Virus record (IMG/VR): IMGVR_UViG_3300050821_010639
Location: 88,047-152,046 of that record
Length of the DNA stretch: 64,000 nucleotides
Strand: one strand, 5' to 3'
Source of the DNA: a virus
In this document: piece by piece, positions 35,901-63,127 of the stretch
How the letters are laid out: each line of letters begins with the position of its first letter
Numbering within the stretch: position 1 is the first letter of the stretch
Made by a program: the position numbers and the translations under genes
The notes under the pieces: model-generated
The model's input: the letters and a program-made list of their open reading frames with translations, nothing else
Told to the model about the DNA's origin: nothing
The model's database searches: none

Positions 35901-38769
35901 GTCACCGATGACGGCCAGGTCCTCGGCCACGTGCGTGAGGGCCGTGGCCTGGATGAACTTGGCGACGATGACGCCCAGGGAGTCGAACCCCTGGCCGATG
36001 AGCGCGAGGTCCCTGGCGCCGACCGCCAGGAAATTCTGCAGCCCGCCTCCGCCGCCTTGCAGGGCGACGACGACCTTGGCGGCGAACCTGTCCAGGTAAC
36101 TGCCGGTCTGGTTGATGAGCTGGCCGAGGACGCCGGTCTTGTTGCCCGCCGCGGTCAGGTAGTCACCGAGCAGCTCGTAGACCTGCGGGCGGACCGCGTT
36201 CTCCAGCTTCTGGAAGTTGCTGGTCAGCGGCGGGATCGTGGTGTTAAGGGCATTGCCGACCGTGCTCAGGCTCTGCCACTGCTGGAAGATCTCCTTGAAC
36301 GACTGGTAGCCGGCCGCGCCGAACGCGATGAGCCCGGCCCCTGCCGTGACCAGGGCGGGCACCCACAGGGCCAGCACCTCGACAACGCTGTCCAGCAGGA
36401 TGTGCCAGAGGGCTACCTGGCCGATCATGTGCGTGTCGCCCAGCAGGCCCGACCACAACTGGACCTGCGTCCGCAGCAGGCCGATGCGCCAGCCCATGTT
36501 GACGGCGGCGTCGCTGTCGGCCTTCATCGCGGCGGCGGCCTTGGCCGCCGGGTCGGCCAGCCCGCCGAGCCCGGCCTTGACGTCGTACAGGGCGCGGCCG
36601 GCATCGGTCGCGGACTGGTCCGCGTCGCGCATCGCCTGGGCGATCTGCTCCCACGCGCGCGACTCGTCCGGGTCGGGCACGTCACCGCCGGGGTCGCCCG
36701 GAGGCGGCCCCCCGCCACCGCCGCCGCCGGAGGCGCCGCCCATGCCGGCGGTGACGCGGTTCTCCGCCGCGCGTGCCTCTTCCAGCTCGCGGACCCAGCT
36801 GGCCAGCTCCGCCTTGGCCGCGTCGTCACCGAAGCTGGCGTAGAACTCGTACTTGCGCTGGACCGCCTCGATGAGCGCGCTCATCCACCGGGACAGCCCG
36901 CTCTCGGCGCCGGTGTCCTCGAAGTCGGCGCGGGTGCCCACCTCGCGCTCAATGTCCTGGATGTCGCGGCTGTAGTCGCGGACCTCCTCCGACGCGCCGC
37001 TGGAGTCAACCACCAGGATGGTGTCCACCTCGTGCGGGATGTCGCGCAGGCCCTCGTCCAGCCCCTCGGCTGCCATCCGGGCCTGCTCGACCTCCTCGAA
37101 GTCGACCCCGAGCCGGGCCTGCGCGTGCTCGTTCAGGTGCGCCAGCTCGCTGGCCAGCAGCTGGGCCTCGGTAACCCCCTGCACGAGGCTGCCGTCCTCG
37201 ATCTCCGGGCGGGCCGGGTGGTCGTCCAGCCACTCCATCTCAACGGCGATCTTGTCCAGCACCTGCTCGGCTGCCGTGCCGCCCTGGACAGCTACCTTCT
37301 CAGTGGCCGTGCCGCCCTGCATGTACTTGCTCAGGCCGGACCACAGCTCCTCTTCCTCCGCCGGGCGGGCGACGACCTGCATGGGCGCGGGCACCGGGTA
37401 GCCGCGCGGGGCGTCGGAGATGACCCCCTCGCGCAGCGCCCCCGCGACGTCCTGCAGCCCGTAGAGGTCGGCGAGGTTCTGGTTGCGCTGCCCGGGAGTG
37501 ACAGGAGCTGCCCGCTTGCCCCGGCCGCCGCGCTGCGGGACGAACCGGGCGCCGGCCTCCGACAGCAGCTGCTCGGCCGCGGCGAGCCGCCCCAGGCCCT
37601 GCTCCAGCGCGCGGGCGTCAACCGCGGCGAGCGCGAGCGAGTCCTGGAACTTGGCGATGGCGTCGGCGGAGACCGCGGTCTTGTCATTCAGCAGCGCCAT
37701 CGAGCCCGCGAGCGCGCCGGTGCCGTCGGACGCGGCGGACAGCGCCTCTCCCGACAGGGGGCCTGGTCCTGACCCGGTGACGGCCAGCGGGGCGCGCAGC
37801 GCCTCCGGGCGGGCTCCGGCGACCGCCTGGGACAGCGCGCGGTTGACCGCCGCGTAGTCGATGTCCGGCCGCACGGAGACCGGCACCGTGGCGTGCTGCG
37901 GCGTGAGCGGGACACCGCCGAGGCGCGAGGCCACCGACACGATGTCCACCCGCTCGGAGCCCGGCAGCCCGAGTAGCGCCGCCCGGTAGGCGGCGAGCTG
38001 CGACATCGCCTGGCCGTCATCGAGCACCGCCTTGGTGACCACCGTGTCCGGCAGCCCGACCAGCGCCGCGCTGTAGGCGTTGAGCGCGCCCAGCCCCTCG
38101 CCGAGGCTGCCCGCCGTGGCGTGCGTGCCCTGCAGCGCGTTGGCGTGCGCGAGCAGCAGCTGGGTCTCGGCGCTGATGGCCGCGCTGCGGTCGCGGATAG
38201 CCGCCGACAGCGAGGCGGTCTGCATGGTCTCGCGCTGCAGGAAGCCCAGGTACTGGTCAGCGGTCTGGTAGCCGGCGAAGTGCGCCCGGTTCTCCAGCAG
38301 GGCGAGGTTGTACATCTGCTGGCGGTAGGACATGGCCTGCTGGACCGAGGAGAAGCCGAGCCAGTGCTGCCGGTTGAGCAGGGTGGTGTAGTTCAGCTCC
38401 TGACTCAGGTCACTCAGGTGCTGGGTCATGTCGTTCCGGCCGCCGTACAGCAGCTGGGTGTTAGTCGACTTGGCCGACTGGGCCAGCTGGGACAGGGCCG
38501 TCGTCTGCTGCTGGATGGCCTGGACGTCCCTGGCCCGCGCGGCAGCCGCCTGGGTAGAGCCCGTCACCTCGGCCGCGGTCTCCGCCTTGACCGCGTCCGA
38601 CATGCCCTGCAGCGCGGCCTTGGCCTCGGCCGCATCCCGCATCAGGCTGCCGAAGTCACCTGAATGTTAAACCGATCGCTTTGTAAATTACGTACCAAAG
38701 CGATCTAACCAATATTCTGGTCCCTCATAAGCCACAGCTGCGGCTCAGAGGCTCAGAATAAGGCGTCAT
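29943..38769 (-). CDS. Tape measure protein with C-terminal lytic transglycosylase-like domain; 5' end split by TTA inserts (contiguous ORF 38642-29943)
   Basis: ~2900 aa Ala/Gly-rich, Trp/Phe periodic repeats, EAGWNLNAQNPTSDAYGIAQF; follows the chaperone. Confidence 0.95.
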
Positions 38770-39489
38770 GAGCACCACCCCCTTCCGCATGAAGGGGCGC
38801 GAGCCCAGGTAATCAGGGAACCGCCAGGCCTGCCCGGTCTTTTCAGCCAGCCCGACCATCTGGTTGCAGGCATGGCACAACAGCCCGCGAATGCACTTCT
38901 TGCAGCAGTGCGTCTGCCCGGACTTCTTGGGCGGGCAGCAATTGTGGTCGTGGTCTACACAGAGGTACACGACACCCTTGCGAGTCTCCGGGCCGCCGTG
39001 AAGGGCGCACACGCCACCCTGCTGTGCTAGCAGCCAGGCGTACTCCTCCTGCGTGATGCCCATGCGCTTGAGCGCCCAGGCCCGGTACTCGCCGTTCCGC
39101 CGGCCTTTACGCGGCTCGCTCCAGCACTCGGTGCACCGCGACATACGCCCGCCTGGCTGTGTCGGCTTGCTCAGGTGGTACTGCTCCCAGGGCTTGTACT
39201 TGCCGCAGCTAGAGCACTCGCGCCCGTCAGGATCAATGCGGAACCCAGTGCCTCGATGACGCTCGGGGACATACGCGGGAGTTGGTCGTGCATAAGTCCC
39301 TGGCTTGCGCCGGGGAATGCCGAACTTGTCCAGCCGGTACCAGACGGCGGCCTGAGAGCAGCCGATCTCAGCAGCGATGTCCGGTGTAGACCTGGCCTGA
39401 CTGACGTACTGCTCGTGAAGCCAAGCCTTGTCGGCGAGCAGTGAGAGATTACGTTCCATGCTCTCTACTACGTGCAAAGCTCTAGCCAT
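38725..39489 (-). CDS. Endonuclease VII-like (HNH) homing-type endonuclease with N-terminal HTH
   Basis: GITQEEY..LL..QGGVCA...LCVDHDH.CC...IRGLLCHACN..VG; inserted between chaperone and tape measure. Confidence 0.9.
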   Translation of the reverse strand: MARALHVVESMERNLSLLADKAWLHEQYVSQARSTPDIAAEIGCSQAAVWYRLDKFGIPRRKPGTYARPTPAYVPERHRGTGFRIDPDGRECSSCGKYKPWEQYHLSKPTQPGGRMSRCTECWSEPRKGRRNGEYRAWALKRMGITQEEYAWLLAQQGGVCALHGGPETRKGVVYLCVDHDHNCCPPKKSGQTHCCKKCIRGLLCHACNQMVGLAEKTGQAWRFPDYLGSRPFMRKGVVLMTPYSEPLSRSCGL

Positions 39490-59921: not shown

Positions 59922-60214
59922 TGCCCGGCAATCGGAGGCTGGCCCGGCGGCCCAGGCGGCGCCGGGGGCACGGGCGGCTGCATGTGCACGTAAGCGAGGC
60001 CGGAGATGGTGTCGCCCGGCGGGACCACCAGGTTTACCCCTAGCTGCGGGTACACGGCGCCGGCCCCCGTCTTCGGCGGCGGCACCGTCGCCGGCGTCAC
60101 GGGCGCGACGGGAGGCTGCCCCGGGGCCAGGGCAGCCAGCTCCAGCGCGCGCCCGGCGGCGATCTCCTCAACGAGGTCGCGGGCAAGCGCCACCATGGCG
60201 TCGTGCGCGCTCAC
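59918..60214 (-). CDS. Pro-rich hypothetical protein
   Basis: GTGA coupling. Confidence 0.6.
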   Translation of the reverse strand: MSAHDAMVALARDLVEEIAAGRALELAALAPGQPPVAPVTPATVPPPKTGAGAVYPQLGVNLVVPPGDTISGLAYVHMQPPVPPAPPGPPGQPPIAGQ

Positions 60215-61829
60215 CCGCCCAGCCCGTTCCCCTTGCCGGCCTGCCCGACCGCGCTGCCCCCGGCGGCCGAGGTACCGGTGGCGGTGGTCTGGGAGCCGAC
60301 TGGCACCTTGATGTGCACTACCGGCTGCTGCGGGGACCCGCCCTTGCCGGCCTGGACCGGGTTCTGCTGCTGTTGCTGCGCCTGCTGGGCCGCGGCCTTC
60401 TGCTGGGCGGCCATCTGCTTCTGCTGCTTCTCGCGGTCGGCCTTGATCTTGTCGTAGTCGATGTCGAAGCCGAAGTCGCCGGCGAGACGCTGCTCCAGCT
60501 CCAGCATGAACTCGGGCGTGACGTTGGCCTGCTGCCCAGCTGTGGCGAGCTTATCGAAAGTATCCTGGATAGCCGCCTTGGCTTCCTCGGTCAGCGGGCC
60601 CCACTTGAAGCGCGGGTACATGTCACTGCCGAAGTTCCAGTCGACAAAGCGCGGGAAGATGTGGTCGTTGATGACCTGCGCCATTTCCTCCAGGATGCCC
60701 TCTAGCATGAGGAAATAGGTCACGTCGTCCTGCTTGCCGAAGTCGACCAGTGTGCTATCCCCCTGGCCGCCGCCCTGCTCATTGTCGAACCACTGAGCGA
60801 GAACGCTCTTCGACATCTGGGAATTGTGGTGGTTGATCAATCCCAGGAAGTCAAAGCGCGACGCCGACTCGTTCAGCGTCTGCACGGTCCAGTCGGCCGT
60901 GGGGAGCGCGATGTACTGCGCGAGCCCCAACTGGGCCAGCGCCTTGACGAAGTTGTTCTTGTCCTCCGCCGGCGCATTGGGGACCATCGTGCCCACGCGC
61001 AGGCCTACCGCCGCCCTTTGCGCTGCCAGGTGCGCGATGTAGTAAAGCTTTTCCTTCTTGTCATAGTGATAAAAGGCGCTCTCGAACATGGACACGCCGT
61101 AGAACGGGCGTTCGGCTTCCTCGTGCGCGTAGTACAGCGCGGTTTCCTTCGGGATCTTGACGTCGATCGTCCGTCCCTGGAAGAACGTGCGCTGCCGGAA
61201 GCCGTTGAACTCGCCCTGGCCGTCAAGCAGGAAAGTGAGGGTCTCCGAGGGGCGCCAGTCCATCTTCCGGAGCGTCCACTTGCCCTTGTTGGGCCCCGTC
61301 TTGGGCTGCCAGTAGACCATCTCCCAGGCGCTGAACCCGTTGAACAGCGCGAGCAGCATCTGCTTGACGAACCTGTCGAAGGAGTGAGTCATCCCGCCGG
61401 CCGCCCGCGGGGCGAACAGCAGGTCCTTGCAGAACTGCGCCTCCTCGACCCCGCCCTCCTGGCCGTCGGCGGGCACCACGTCAGCGTTCTTCATCGCCGA
61501 CAGCAGGGGCTTGGTCAGCAGCCGGTACAGCGCCCTGGCCTGGCCGTCGCGGCGGCGCATGGTGACCAGCTGGCGAATTGAAACTGGGTCATCGCGGAAG
61601 ATTTCCCAGCTGTCCCGGTACGGGGTCGCGAAGGGGAGGAAGTACGGGACACCAGGTTAAGCCGACCGCGAAGTTCTGGGCCTCATCCGGCGGACGGACA
61701 AGCGACTGCTCGTCCTGAAGAACGTAACCTTCCTGGCCGTAACCCTGCGTGGCTTAAGGTGACGCCCATTCCTCCGGGCGGCTGCACGCTGGCGGTGTAT
61801 GAGCCTTGTCCCGAACCTGGGGTCGTCAT
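60211..61829 (-). CDS. Portal protein (DUF935/Mu gp29-like); 5' end split by two 10-nt TTA inserts (contiguous ORF 61560-60211)
   Basis: MLLALFNGFSAWEMVY, PFYGVSMFESA, INHHNSQMSKSVLAQ, N.HIFPRFVDWNF; RBS GGAGGTG before ATG 61829. Confidence 0.9.
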
Positions 61830-61835
61830 ATGGCA

Positions 61836-62510
61836 TCACCTCCCCCTGCAGACAGGAGGCAGCGCCTCGCGGACCTGTTCACCTCCCGTCTGATCGGTTA
61901 GTGCTTCCTCGATGTGCGGAGGCAGGGTCTTCCACCAGTGCTCAGGCCGTCGCAAGTGATGCGACACGCAAAGCGTCACAAGCCAGCGAGGGTCGTTAAC
62001 TGGCCGCAGCCGGTACGGGATGACATGGTGAACGACTAGCCCAGCACCAGACGGAATGAACTCTCCGCCGTCCTGGCAGCTGTAGCCGTCGCGCTCAAGA
62101 ACAGCCCGACGGATCTCCGGCCACGTCGCCCCCCGGTAAGTCCGCTCCGAGGGCGAACTGCCACCTCGGAAGTTCGGGTGGGCATCCCCGCGCAGCCAGT
62201 AGTCCCGAATGCCCGTCAAGCCGAGGGCAGACGCCTTATGCCGCACAGCGCCCTCTGAACGGCCAGTCAGCTCAGCAACAGCCCCTAGCGGCATGTCAGG
62301 TTCCGCTAGGAGTTCTAGCTCCCACGGCTCCCAGCCACGCTGCCAGCTTCGGGCCTTACCCTTGCCGCCTTGGCAGAACACCCGGTTCACTCCGAGCTGG
62401 GAGGCTTTCGTACTAGCGCCAGCCAATGTACGGCCCGTTCGCTCCGCCACCTCAGCCAGCGACAGCGACGTGTCCCGCAACAGTGCTAGCTCAGCCTCAG
62501 TCCACCGCAA
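61836..62510 (-). CDS. HNH endonuclease with N-terminal HTH repeats
   Basis: W.EIRRAVLERDGYSCQ...LVVHHVIP...N....LVTLC.SHH; its stop overlaps the portal RBS. Confidence 0.9.
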   Translation of the reverse strand: MRWTEAELALLRDTSLSLAEVAERTGRTLAGASTKASQLGVNRVFCQGGKGKARSWQRGWEPWELELLAEPDMPLGAVAELTGRSEGAVRHKASALGLTGIRDYWLRGDAHPNFRGGSSPSERTYRGATWPEIRRAVLERDGYSCQDGGEFIPSGAGLVVHHVIPYRLRPVNDPRWLVTLCVSHHLRRPEHWWKTLPPHIEEALTDQTGGEQVREALPPVCRGR

Positions 62511-62811
62511 CAGCAGCCTCGCGCAGCCTGCGCAGCTCCGCCACGACCGCGAGCACGCGCCGGTCGCCAGACGGCGGGTTGTACTGGGTCGACTCCTCCC
62601 AGTGCCGCAGGGCCTCTTGCCAGGTCACCCCGGCCGCCTCGTGCTTGCTGCGTAGCGGGCTAGCCGCGTCGCTGGTGCACGACATCTTCATGTCGCGCGA
62701 GTCTCCGACTTCAAGCAGGGCACCGCACACCCGGCAGATCGGCTTCTCCGCGTAGCGAAACTCCAGGACAGCGAGCAGTTCGTCCGTAATCTCAACAGGT
62801 ACTTCACTCAT
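62497..62811 (-). CDS. Hypothetical protein
   Basis: CRVC motif; overlaps the HNH start. Confidence 0.6.
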   Translation of the reverse strand: MSEVPVEITDELLAVLEFRYAEKPICRVCGALLEVGDSRDMKMSCTSDAASPLRSKHEAAGVTWQEALRHWEESTQYNPPSGDRRVLAVVAELRRLREAAVAVD

Positions 62812-62836: not shown

Positions 62837-63127
62837 CTACCTGCCAGCGGGCCTGCGGGCCGGGGGCTTGTCCTCAGCAGACGGCGCGTCGATCATGCCG
62901 GCCAGGTTATTCGAGTTGACGAACAGGTGCCGCCCGTCCGGCAGGAGCACCTGCACGCCGATGAGGTTGCCCATCTCGGCCGCGATGGTCACGCTGTCAC
63001 TCGGCACGGTAACCTCGCCGACGCCGCCGACCGGCTGGAGGAGGGTGACCACGACGTCGCCCTTCTGCGCGCCGGGAGCGTTGCCGGCGTCGGCCATGAA
63101 CTCGTGCCACATCCCCTTAAGGTGCAT
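62837..63127 (-). CDS. Hypothetical protein
   Basis: Late motif at -14. Confidence 0.65.
   Translation of the reverse strand: MHLKGMWHEFMADAGNAPGAQKGDVVVTLLQPVGGVGEVTVPSDSVTIAAEMGNLIGVQVLLPDGRHLFVNSNNLAGMIDAPSAEDKPPARRPAGR

Follow-up and report, generated by a model that had tools for sequence, protein, structure and literature searches.

Translational bypassing is, to our knowledge, among the rarest decoding events, and the only published natural cases that we know of in bacteria and phages are those of T4 gene 60 and of four UUA sites within the terminase genes of three Streptomyces phages or prophages. Short hops over stop or 'hungry' codons are also reportedly obtained with reporters in E. 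coli, in work of 1987 by Weiss, Gesteland and Atkins and of 1998 by Gallant and Lindsley.

In T4 gene 60, a 50-nt bypass is accompanied by mobA, an HNH homing endonuclease gene (PMC5009743; Manning and Atkins, bioRxiv 10.1101/2022.08.31.505936). Bypassing at UUA occurs in the large terminase genes of phage phiHau3 and of the StrepC.1 and S. catenulae prophages (Smith et al. 2013; Antonov et al. 2023, PMC10732093). The phiHau3 terminase gene, which a preliminary description of the locus studied here had cited as a precedent, indeed contains two 10-nt UUA gaps; its full-length product was detected in S. coelicolor, and with UAA replacing UUA a junction peptide was identified in E. coli by mass spectrometry (PMC10732093). 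Finally, Magnusiomyces mitochondria contain byp elements (Lang et al. 2014, cited in PMC10732093), GC-rich hairpins of 27–55 nt with an unassigned codon in the A site.

Here we analysed a window of 64,000 nt (positions 88,047 to 152,046 of IMG/VR record IMGVR_UViG_3300050821_010639) from an uncultured, high-GC (70% GC) soil phage of 152 kb. Two short inserts, each headed by TTA, interrupt the 5' end of its portal gene, and they are quite probably crossed by two short, UUA-triggered translational hops within a mobile 5' allele associated with a leader and an HNH gene.

Results

The portal gene occupies three reading frames

On the minus strand, the 5' end of the portal gene is spread over three frames, with breaks at TTAAGCC (61757-61751) and TTAACCTGGT (61660-61651). 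The RBS GGAGG (61843-61839) precedes the ATG at 61829 that opens segment 1 (61758-61829), consisting of this ATG and 23 codons, the last being the putative take-off codon ACC (61760-61758), and aligning collinearly with the first 24 residues of two homologues, P0003 and P0004. Segment 2 (61661-61750) comprises 30 codons, from ACG (61750) to the putative take-off codon GGC (61663-61661); its frame is closed upstream by TAA (61756-61754), contains no ATG, GTG or TTG, and is collinear with residues 25-54 of the homologues, even with that of Microbacterium phage Magritte. Segment 3 (60211-61650; 479 codons and a stop) contains the Portal_Mu domain (Pfam PF06074; E = 1.8e-35, 123 bits against a gathering cut-off of 23.9) and is 92% identical to P0003, the portal body showing no further defect. 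A TAA (61659-61657) closes this frame upstream, and no purine-rich RBS precedes the first ATG in it, at 61560. This layout reproduces that of the preliminary description, including the RBS and start, the 24-codon first segment, the closed portal frame and the internal ATG lacking an RBS.

Around 100 homologues contain an unbroken N-terminus collinear with the three segments of the window. Close relatives, up to 92% identical, encode this N-terminus without interruption, and Magritte, with only 50% identity, aligns across the second junction as well. The rejoined N-terminus of the window is collinear with homologues of 534 aa, with no residues added, and the homologues do not vary in length at either junction; the inserts are absent from most relatives. 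This is the continuity that had been anticipated for the rejoined protein, and it indicates that segments 1, 2 and 3 are all portal coding sequence. Megablast of the region against 50,697 phage genomes gave no match, nor did a comparison of the Magritte terminase with the window, so the terminase was not located.

Gene callers start ~25 of 120 homologues (roughly a fifth) at an internal Met, MRRRDG, and the Pfam Portal_Mu match begins only near this motif, as would be expected if the functional portal were a 449-aa protein starting at ATG 61560 and the segments upstream of it were the decaying remains of an N-terminal extension that the inserts had destroyed. We consider this very unlikely. 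The homologues reach far upstream of MRRRDG, instead of starting there as the preliminary description had envisaged might be the case, and the N-terminus is conserved in ~100 of them. Likewise, a strong, conserved RBS lies before ATG 61829 and none before ATG 61560, and the upstream 84 codons are under strong purifying selection (dN/dS among interrupted alleles of 0.04-0.16 for codons 1-84, with synonymous sites near saturation), without stops or frameshifts other than inserts following the rules described below. These data indicate that the joined reading frame is conserved and under purifying selection.

TTA is the rarest leucine codon of the phage

TTA represents 9 of the 22,844 codons in long ORFs of the phage, fewer than any other Leu codon, and none of the 35 phage tRNAs is a Leu-UAA tRNA. 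The remaining 480 codons of the portal gene include no in-frame TTA, and neither do codons 1-84 of 36 distinct uninterrupted alleles. An initial census of in-frame TTA, based on GC3, was dropped as it was confounded by antisense shadow frames. A scan of species genomes for the host returned only a distant 53% match in a Burkholderiales MAG; slow decoding of UUA (as with a bldA-type tRNA) is suggested only by the rarity of the codon and by the phage tRNA set.

Two coding gaps of 7 and 10 nt

At both sites of the window, an in-frame TTA directly follows the last homologous codon, as had been claimed, and translation confirmed that reading it as Leu leads to early termination at either site. For instance, the frame of segment 1 read straight through TTA (61757-61755) meets a stop after 24 more codons, producing a 48-aa ORF.

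The proposal that each insert skips exactly 10 nt between synonymous codons was supported for site 2 but not, as worded, for site 1. In DNA alignments with ~100 homologues, coding gap 2 (61651-61660), formed by TTAACCT and the putative landing codon GGT, comprises 10 extra bases, and GGT is cognate and synonymous with take-off GGC. Conversely, coding gap 1 (61751-61757; TTAAGCC) comprises only seven, and its candidate landing codons, GCC (7 nt) or ACG (10 nt, a gap to 61748), are only near-cognate to take-off ACC; landing on GCC requires a G.U pair in the first codon position and is not a true match. Site 1 is nevertheless more likely a 7-nt gap landing on GCC than a 10-nt hop, because the V-T-(T/S)-Q spacing of the aligned homologues is then maintained. 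Three relatives (L006, L085 and L088) contain a gap at this same codon, with GCC recurring in L085 and L088; the arrangements seen there among relatives are ACC[TTAG ACC], ACT[TTAGCGA GCC] and ACC[TTA GCC].

Both window inserts produce a +1 shift, and for phiHau3 +1 frameshifting could not at first be excluded by Antonov et al. An alternative form of recoding would be that UUA is decoded and a +1 frameshift follows one or two codons later, adding 1-3 residues, or else that transcriptional slippage or RNA editing operates. The +1-frame codon, however, is TAA at both sites, with neither a slippery re-pairing site after it nor the +1 re-pairing shift site of programmed frameshifts of the prfB or Ty type; there are no homopolymer runs for slippage, and an RNA-library contig (see below) is identical to the DNA. 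Together with the constant length of the homologues at the junctions, and with gaps of 4, 13 and 29 nt and stop-containing in-frame inserts elsewhere in the family, these observations make such recoding highly improbable.

TTAAGCC and GGCTTAA are reverse-complementary, as the preliminary description had pointed out, and they pair in the minimum-energy fold of 61635-61785. This fold is only marginally better than those of shuffled sequences (z = -1.94; 9 of 200 shuffles as good), and pairing is not general, being absent from relatives with a single site, such as L006, which carries site 1 alone; we regard it as probably incidental. Local hairpins at the two window sites were no better than shuffles (z = +0.8 and +2.1). 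We also discarded internal SD-like runs as a shared feature, as they occur upstream of only some take-off codons: GGAGGA lies 12 nt before the site-1 TTA in the window and in L006, where L085 has GGCGGA, and GGGAGG precedes a hotspot at Arg-72.

We scanned the whole genome for take-off, TTA and landing codons flanked by coding signal, requiring at least 22 open codons on each side. Site 2 of the portal gene was the only strong candidate, the other match being one ordinary gene junction. The scan missed site 1 itself, so other tandem short hops could escape detection.

The inserts are present in independent sequences

The record is a metagenomic contig, and a pair of frame breaks within 100 nt would ordinarily raise the suspicion of error or decay; the gene could simply be broken, through a sequencing or assembly error or as a pseudogene of a defective phage. 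Nonetheless, both inserts are identical in a contig of the probable source run, and an independent DNA run (X2) confirms the insert at site 1, being uninformative at site 2, where its contig breaks. A 215-nt contig from an RNA library, which may stem from contaminating DNA, spans both sites and contains both inserts, identical to the DNA. Contigs from other samples also carry inserts, those of the L025 type recurring in 11 contigs. Hence, neither absence from the reads nor splicing out of the RNA, both contemplated in the preliminary description, was borne out, and the inserts are real and not an assembly error. Decay of the gene is hard to reconcile with the intact state of the rest of the gene and genome (100% complete by CheckV), and with the occurrence of inserts obeying the same rules in 15 lineages from many samples, confined to codons 1-80; breaks arising at random would not invariably start with an in-frame TTA. 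A broken gene is thus the least credible of the explanations considered here, to the point of being almost negligible.

A family of TTA-headed inserts in related phages

Related phages of these 15 lineages contain 33 inserts of 4-29 nt at no fewer than 13 codon positions. In all 33, as first noted for the two in the window, an in-frame TTA comes directly after the last homologous codon. The landing codon coincides with the take-off codon in its first two bases in 28 of them (identical in 20); three inserts combine a Thr take-off with landing on GCC, and one of L085 (TGG to CGC) shows a poor match. In 25 inserts, TAA or TAG follows immediately in the +1 frame.

Three inserts maintain the frame and yet contain stop codons (15 nt in L043, 18 nt in L088 and 15 nt in L091), and one of L084 reaches 29 nt and contains a hairpin; single-base frameshifting cannot explain these four. 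Together with the TAA of the +1 frame at both window sites, they indicate that ribosomes do not translate the inserts. In-frame inserts of 6 and 12 nt without stops also occur. Deletion of 21 gaps from eight lineages restored a collinear N-terminus in all eight, leaving no stops and no other frameshifts.

A leader and an HNH gene accompany the interrupted alleles

Immediately upstream of the portal gene of the window, on the minus strand, lies an HNH endonuclease gene (61836-62510; 224 aa, with helix-turn-helix repeats and an HNH core), whose TGA stop overlaps the portal RBS. A Pfam search with its product gave no match at E ≤ 0.01, although it matched the PHROG HNH families (E = 8.6e-15) and is 48-55% identical to the products encoded upstream in L006, L043 and L018, which themselves score above the Pfam HNH threshold. 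The window copy lacks two of the four zinc cysteines and one DNA-binding repeat; it looks degenerate and may be inactive. The motifs are intact in the HNH proteins of L006, L043 and L091. We found no HNH homologue at that position in uninterrupted relatives. Next to it is an ORF of 104 aa (62497-62811, minus strand), with no assigned function and no match in Pfam or PHROG, flanked upstream by a conserved gene of 96 aa (62837-63127). In uninterrupted relatives the homologue of the 96-aa gene ends 20-60 nt before the portal start; the 104-aa ORF, situated between the 96-aa and HNH genes, is thus part of ~1 kb of extra DNA.

The portal start is preceded by a predicted leader hairpin (61832-61866, minus strand), in which the anti-SD CCTCC (61859-61855) would pair with the portal RBS; its consensus fold has 12 pairs, with little covariation. 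All 9 interrupted lineages contained the leader, against none of 37 uninterrupted lineages; for an HNH gene or its remnant, the respective counts were 7 of 9 and 0 of ~30 (Fisher p = 2e-6, the lineages not being independent). Five lineages fetched later all fit the leader/HNH pattern. The L025 type, L085 and L090 are interrupted yet contain no HNH gene nearby and, because of these three lineages and the degenerate state of the window copy, the link to the nuclease is correlative.

The synonymous codons of the interrupted 5' allele are richer in A and T. Its identity to the nearest uninterrupted allele is 57-87%, climbing to 90-98% after ~240-420 nt of the portal gene, and interrupted alleles are scattered on the tree of portal bodies (12 rows require 10 changes, which does not improve on shuffled labels). 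In keeping with a free-standing HNH homing endonuclease cassette, the HNH ORF is intercalated between conserved genes, occurs sporadically in close relatives and has mosaic flanks reminiscent of co-conversion tracts, and the interrupted alleles are phylogenetically incongruent. Taken together, this HNH gene, the leader common to interrupted alleles and their mosaic distribution, which the preliminary description had not noted, point to a mobile module.

Another view accepts bypassing but takes the inserts as a sensor of host state, which would confine portal synthesis to times when the UUA-reading tRNA is in short supply, with the HNH gene as an unrelated neighbour; the preliminary description had likewise inferred that the portal would depend on poor decoding of UUA. 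It matches the lysis/lysogeny model published for phiHau3 (PMC10732093), and decoding of UUA does lead to early termination at both sites. We nevertheless deem it unlikely, though clearly less so than the explanations above, as the inserts are sporadic among near-identical phages and travel with the leader and the HNH gene or its remnants as a mosaic module, and as in-frame versions of 6 and 12 nt without stops cannot act as a switch. Sensor and mobile module are not mutually exclusive.

Discussion

Translational bypassing at UUA probably operates here as two successive short hops on one mRNA, yielding a portal of 533 aa (532 if site 1 is a 10-nt hop). With the peptidyl-tRNA standing on the take-off codon (ACC for Thr at the first site, GGC for Gly at the second), UUA would fill the A site and be slow to decode; the peptidyl-tRNA would then let go of the mRNA, which would slide by 7 nt to bring up GCC (site 1) or by 10 nt to bring up GGT (site 2). 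There the tRNA would pair again, and decoding would restart at ACG and GTC, respectively. Ribosomes reading UUA as Leu would terminate 23-24 codons later. Both hops must succeed, so the yield of portal may be low.

The inserts would belong to a distinct portal 5' allele, characterized by a strong but paired RBS, synonymous codons richer in A and T and, usually, an HNH gene upstream, and moving between phages independently of the remaining portal gene. Most likely, the inserts persist because bypassing makes them tolerable. They may also shield the allele from cleavage by the nuclease, as was proposed for T4 gene 60 and mobA. Indeed, we tentatively suggest, with somewhat more doubt than conviction, that the TTA-headed gaps are immunity marks of a mobile HNH homing module: in mixed infections, uninterrupted portal genes would be cut at their 5' end by the nuclease, after which the whole module, made up of nuclease, leader and interrupted 5' portal segment, would be copied in; the gene being essential, disruptions of the target site would survive only where ribosomes are able to hop across them at a starved UUA.

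The gaps are of the phiHau3 type in having an in-frame UUA after the last homologous codon, a 7- or 10-nt block missing in homologues and a candidate landing codon and, as in that high-GC actinophage, two of them lie in tandem in one essential, low-copy morphogenesis gene. Unlike that type, they occur in a portal instead of a terminase gene, in an unrelated group of uncultured phages of ~150 kb whose nearest isolate is Magritte; they amount to 33 natural gaps (4-29 nt), all in the first 80 codons, versus four published sites; and they show a link with an HNH gene and with a special leader, on both of which PMC10732093 is silent. Local structures were reported for phiHau3, whereas we found no significant flanking hairpin at the window sites, and its product was detected experimentally, that of the window being predicted from sequence.

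With T4 gene 60 and mobA the locus shares matched (site 2) or near-matched (site 1) take-off and landing codons around a putatively slow A-site codon, an HNH gene directly upstream, a gap and nuclease that behave as one mobile unit, and a gap that may protect against the nuclease. We rejected its assignment to the T4 type, defined by a gap of ~50 nt, a take-off stem-loop and an A-site stop, because the window gaps span 7 and 10 nt, there are several per gene, no take-off stem-loop is present and the slow codon is a sense UUA; it resembles that type without being a member.

In the hops described from E. coli reporters, peptidyl-tRNA likewise detaches at a starved or stop A-site codon and pairs again with a matching codon a few bases downstream; those are low-efficiency laboratory events, unlike the present gaps, which have become fixed in a natural, essential gene and are maintained by selection. 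The Magnusiomyces byps also consist of many short bypassed inserts in coding genes, with matched take-off and landing codons and signs of mobility, the inserts described here being shorter, headed by TTA and restricted to one gene region.

For annotation, our results mean that portal genes of this kind are truncated at the internal Met in about one fifth of database entries. More generally, with this window and related phages natural bypassing gains a second family of essential genes and 33 variants that differ in gap length (4-29 nt), landing codon and context, a series open to mining and testing for the rules of take-off and landing. The link to HNH genes, the leader and the mosaic inheritance suggest that gaps arise and spread as selfish DNA, not as regulatory inventions, and this makes the origin of bypass elements testable. 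If the gaps are indeed immunity marks, over 30 minimal bypass sites would be available as a natural library from which to learn the rules of short-range hopping, and the single case of T4 gene 60 and mobA would be extended to a general route to bypass elements.

The portal reading frame is split at two TTA codons

The virus record comprises 152,046 bp with a GC content of about 70%, and the window is its last 64 kb. Portal segment 1, on the minus strand, starts at ATG 61829 behind the ribosome-binding site GGAGG (61843-61839) and runs for 24 codons, the last being ACC, up to an in-frame TTA (61757-61755); read on through this TTA, the frame reaches a stop after 24 further codons. Segment 2 spans 30 codons, from ACG 61750 to GGC 61663-61661, and is followed by a second in-frame TTA; its frame holds no start codon and is closed upstream by a TAA overlapping the first TTA. 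Likewise, segment 3, the portal frame itself (Portal_Mu, PF06074, E = 1.8e-35), is shut off upstream by a TAA that overlaps the second TTA; the first ATG in this frame lies at 61560. We thus reproduced the three-frame split on the minus strand that the preliminary description had reported, including the TAA shutting the portal frame and the lack of a ribosome-binding site before ATG 61560. The product with gaps of 7 nt and 10 nt removed is 533 aa long.

We found 634 portal relatives in a large protein collection. The closest, P0003 and P0004 (534 aa, 91-92% identical), have a single N-terminus, free of breaks and collinear with all three segments, providing the continuity across both junctions anticipated for homologous portals. 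In the DNA alignment with relatives, the window carries 7 additional bases at the first TTA (site 1) and 10 at the second (site 2). The alignment with Microbacterium phage Magritte, the nearest named phage (50% identity), reaches right to the TAA, and the Magritte N-terminus resembles the end of segment 2. Homology indicates that all three segments are portal coding sequence.

The inserts are real. A contig from the run that is probably the source agrees throughout; among the other runs searched, site 1 is confirmed by an independent DNA run from soil, which has a contig break at site 2, whereas a 215-nt metatranscriptome-library contig (61615-61829) is identical across both sites. This last contig argues weakly against removal of the inserts at the RNA level, because DNA carry-over is possible. 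In a fourth run there is a relative whose inserts at the two sites are variants and which has one further TTAG-type insert. Two contigs of the soil run end at 61656 and 61696, flanking site 2, and in two other runs the portal ATG (61829) is the exact end point of contigs; such ends would be the expected assembly-graph effect if strains varied at both the gap and the cassette border.

A family of TTA-headed inserts

Comparison of 90 related loci revealed 33 short inserts in 15 lineages, at a minimum of 13 codon positions, all inside the first 80 codons. In every case an in-frame TTA heads the insert, directly 3' of the last homologous (take-off) codon, with gaps of 4, 6, 7, 10, 12, 13, 15, 18 or 29 nt. 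The final three bases of the insert, the landing codon, equal the take-off codon in 20 of the 33 and share its first two bases in 8 more; three have a Thr take-off followed by GCC, and two fit poorly (ATG to CTG, TGG to CGC). At the site 1 codon, relatives carry ACC[TTAG ACC], ACT[TTAGCGA GCC] and ACC[TTA GCC], and we therefore read the window as ACC[TTAA GCC]ACG, a gap of 7 nt (61757-61751) that keeps the spacing of the aligned homologues, whereas a 10-nt hop leaves the product one residue shorter. Of the 10-nt skips initially proposed for both sites, we keep the one at site 2 (61660-61651), and at site 1 the 7-nt gap is the more likely reading. Additionally, the homologue P0051, available as protein sequence only, reads ...PYR-LR-DSW... 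and ...IFR-LR-DDP..., the LR pairs expected from translated in-frame 6-nt TTA-CGN inserts as in loci L084 and L090; residues 1-25 of this protein are out of frame.

UUA-triggered bypassing is the best reading of both gaps

Among the 22,844 codons of the phage's long ORFs, 9 are TTA, and no in-frame TTA was found in the other 480 portal codons or, in 36 uninterrupted alleles, within codons 1-84. Outside the window, the full record has 35 tRNA genes clustered on the same strand as one another (G000:C1:3336-8466); they include Thr-GGU, Gly-GCC and three Leu tRNAs (CAG, GAG and CAA), but none for UUA or CUA. Elsewhere in the window (38643-38785, minus), TTA 38730-38728 is the last sense codon of a 254-aa ORF (38725-39489), followed by TGA, and may simply mark the normal end of that gene; more TTA-containing stretches lie between that TGA and a long ORF starting at 38642 (minus).

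In silico deletion of 21 gaps from eight lineages yielded an open, collinear N-terminus in all eight, and dN/dS over codons 1-84 was 0.04-0.16 among these interrupted alleles, with synonymous sites near saturation. This constraint points to a broken reading frame that is still used. A truncated portal started at ATG 61560 conflicts with this selection upstream of that ATG and with the missing ribosome-binding site, although the internal Met is the called start in about one fifth of database homologues. Joining of the frames by a +1 frameshift is blocked by a TAA in the +1 frame at both sites. Across the family, the base after TTA creates a +1-frame TAA or TAG in 25 of the 33 inserts; three in-frame inserts contain stop codons and one 29-nt insert a hairpin, so that single-base frameshifting cannot serve the family.

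From the sequence, bypassing triggered by UUA is the best reading of both portal gaps. A UUA starved in the A site would trigger the hop, the peptidyl-tRNA would release ACC (site 1) or GGC (site 2), and the mRNA would slide until the tRNA re-paired at GCC or GGT, respectively, and decoding would then restart. The precedent of the phiHau3 terminase was borne out: it has two 10-nt gaps for which the same mechanism was proposed, S. coelicolor gave a full-length product, E. coli yielded a junction peptide after UUA had been changed to UAA, and recoding doubled once a +1 stop was added (PMC10732093). Both systems share UUA-headed gaps, including 10-nt ones, but the gene is a terminase in phiHau3 and here a portal known from sequence. 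No local hairpins stand out at the two sites. The sites are predicted to pair with each other, as first noticed, but the existence of single-site relatives shows that the gaps can do without such pairing. Because a virion needs only a few copies of the portal, the phage may be able to afford two inefficient hops; a bldA-sensor role for the UUA gaps is a hypothesis.

Interrupted alleles are associated with an HNH gene and a leader

An HNH endonuclease gene (61836-62510, minus) lies directly upstream of the portal gene, in about 1 kb of extra DNA between the latter and a conserved 96-aa gene. Of the first nine interrupted lineages for which upstream sequence was available, seven had an HNH gene or remnant, as compared with none of about 30 distinct uninterrupted alleles. 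Five further lineages, picked for short-called portal genes, were all interrupted, with HNH intact in two, a remnant in two and none in one. In the window copy, two of four zinc-binding Cys are replaced, by Gly and His, and the DNA-binding repeats number one fewer than in relatives; this copy may be decaying. L087 retains only a C-terminal HNH remnant with the same Cys-to-His change, and L084, L088 and L089 have short remnants, a series that looks like stepwise loss of the nuclease from alleles that keep their gaps. In L088, the HNH remnant is separated from the interrupted portal gene by a Dam-type methylase gene (PF05869, 745-1278).

All interrupted alleles, and no uninterrupted allele, have a leader of about 55 nt, with a CCTCC as the predicted pairing partner of the strong portal ribosome-binding site. 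The predicted hairpin (61832-61866, minus) has counterparts ahead of the portal start in L006, L018, L025, L043, L076, L084, L085 and L087-L092, with little covariation. In the window, the HNH ORF reads through the hairpin and stops within the ribosome-binding site, an arrangement that suggests translational coupling or masking.

Interrupted alleles are scattered on the portal-body tree, with 10 changes for 12 rows, the same as for shuffled labels, and at least five of the changes are forced by well-supported branches. Homology to their nearest uninterrupted alleles is absent upstream of the ATG, and identity is 57-87% for the first 240-420 nt and then rises to 90-98%; the window and L006 share 95% identity over the first 120 nt only. 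By sequence comparison, this pattern is that of a mobile module whose flanks were co-converted. The HNH gene and interrupted portal gene have the same arrangement as mobA and gene 60 of T4 (PMC5009743; bioRxiv 10.1101/2022.08.31.505936), and by analogy cleavage of uninterrupted portal DNA is a candidate activity of the HNH product.

This kind of bypass is already published, in a report (PMC10732093) without a portal gene, a series of this size or a nuclease link. L084 (2601-4283) also has a large insertion in the portal body, with 169 query residues spread over 1.7 kb, and the portal homologue P0101 (820 aa) contains an intein domain (PF14890). Selfish elements of several kinds seem to accumulate in the portal genes of this phage group.
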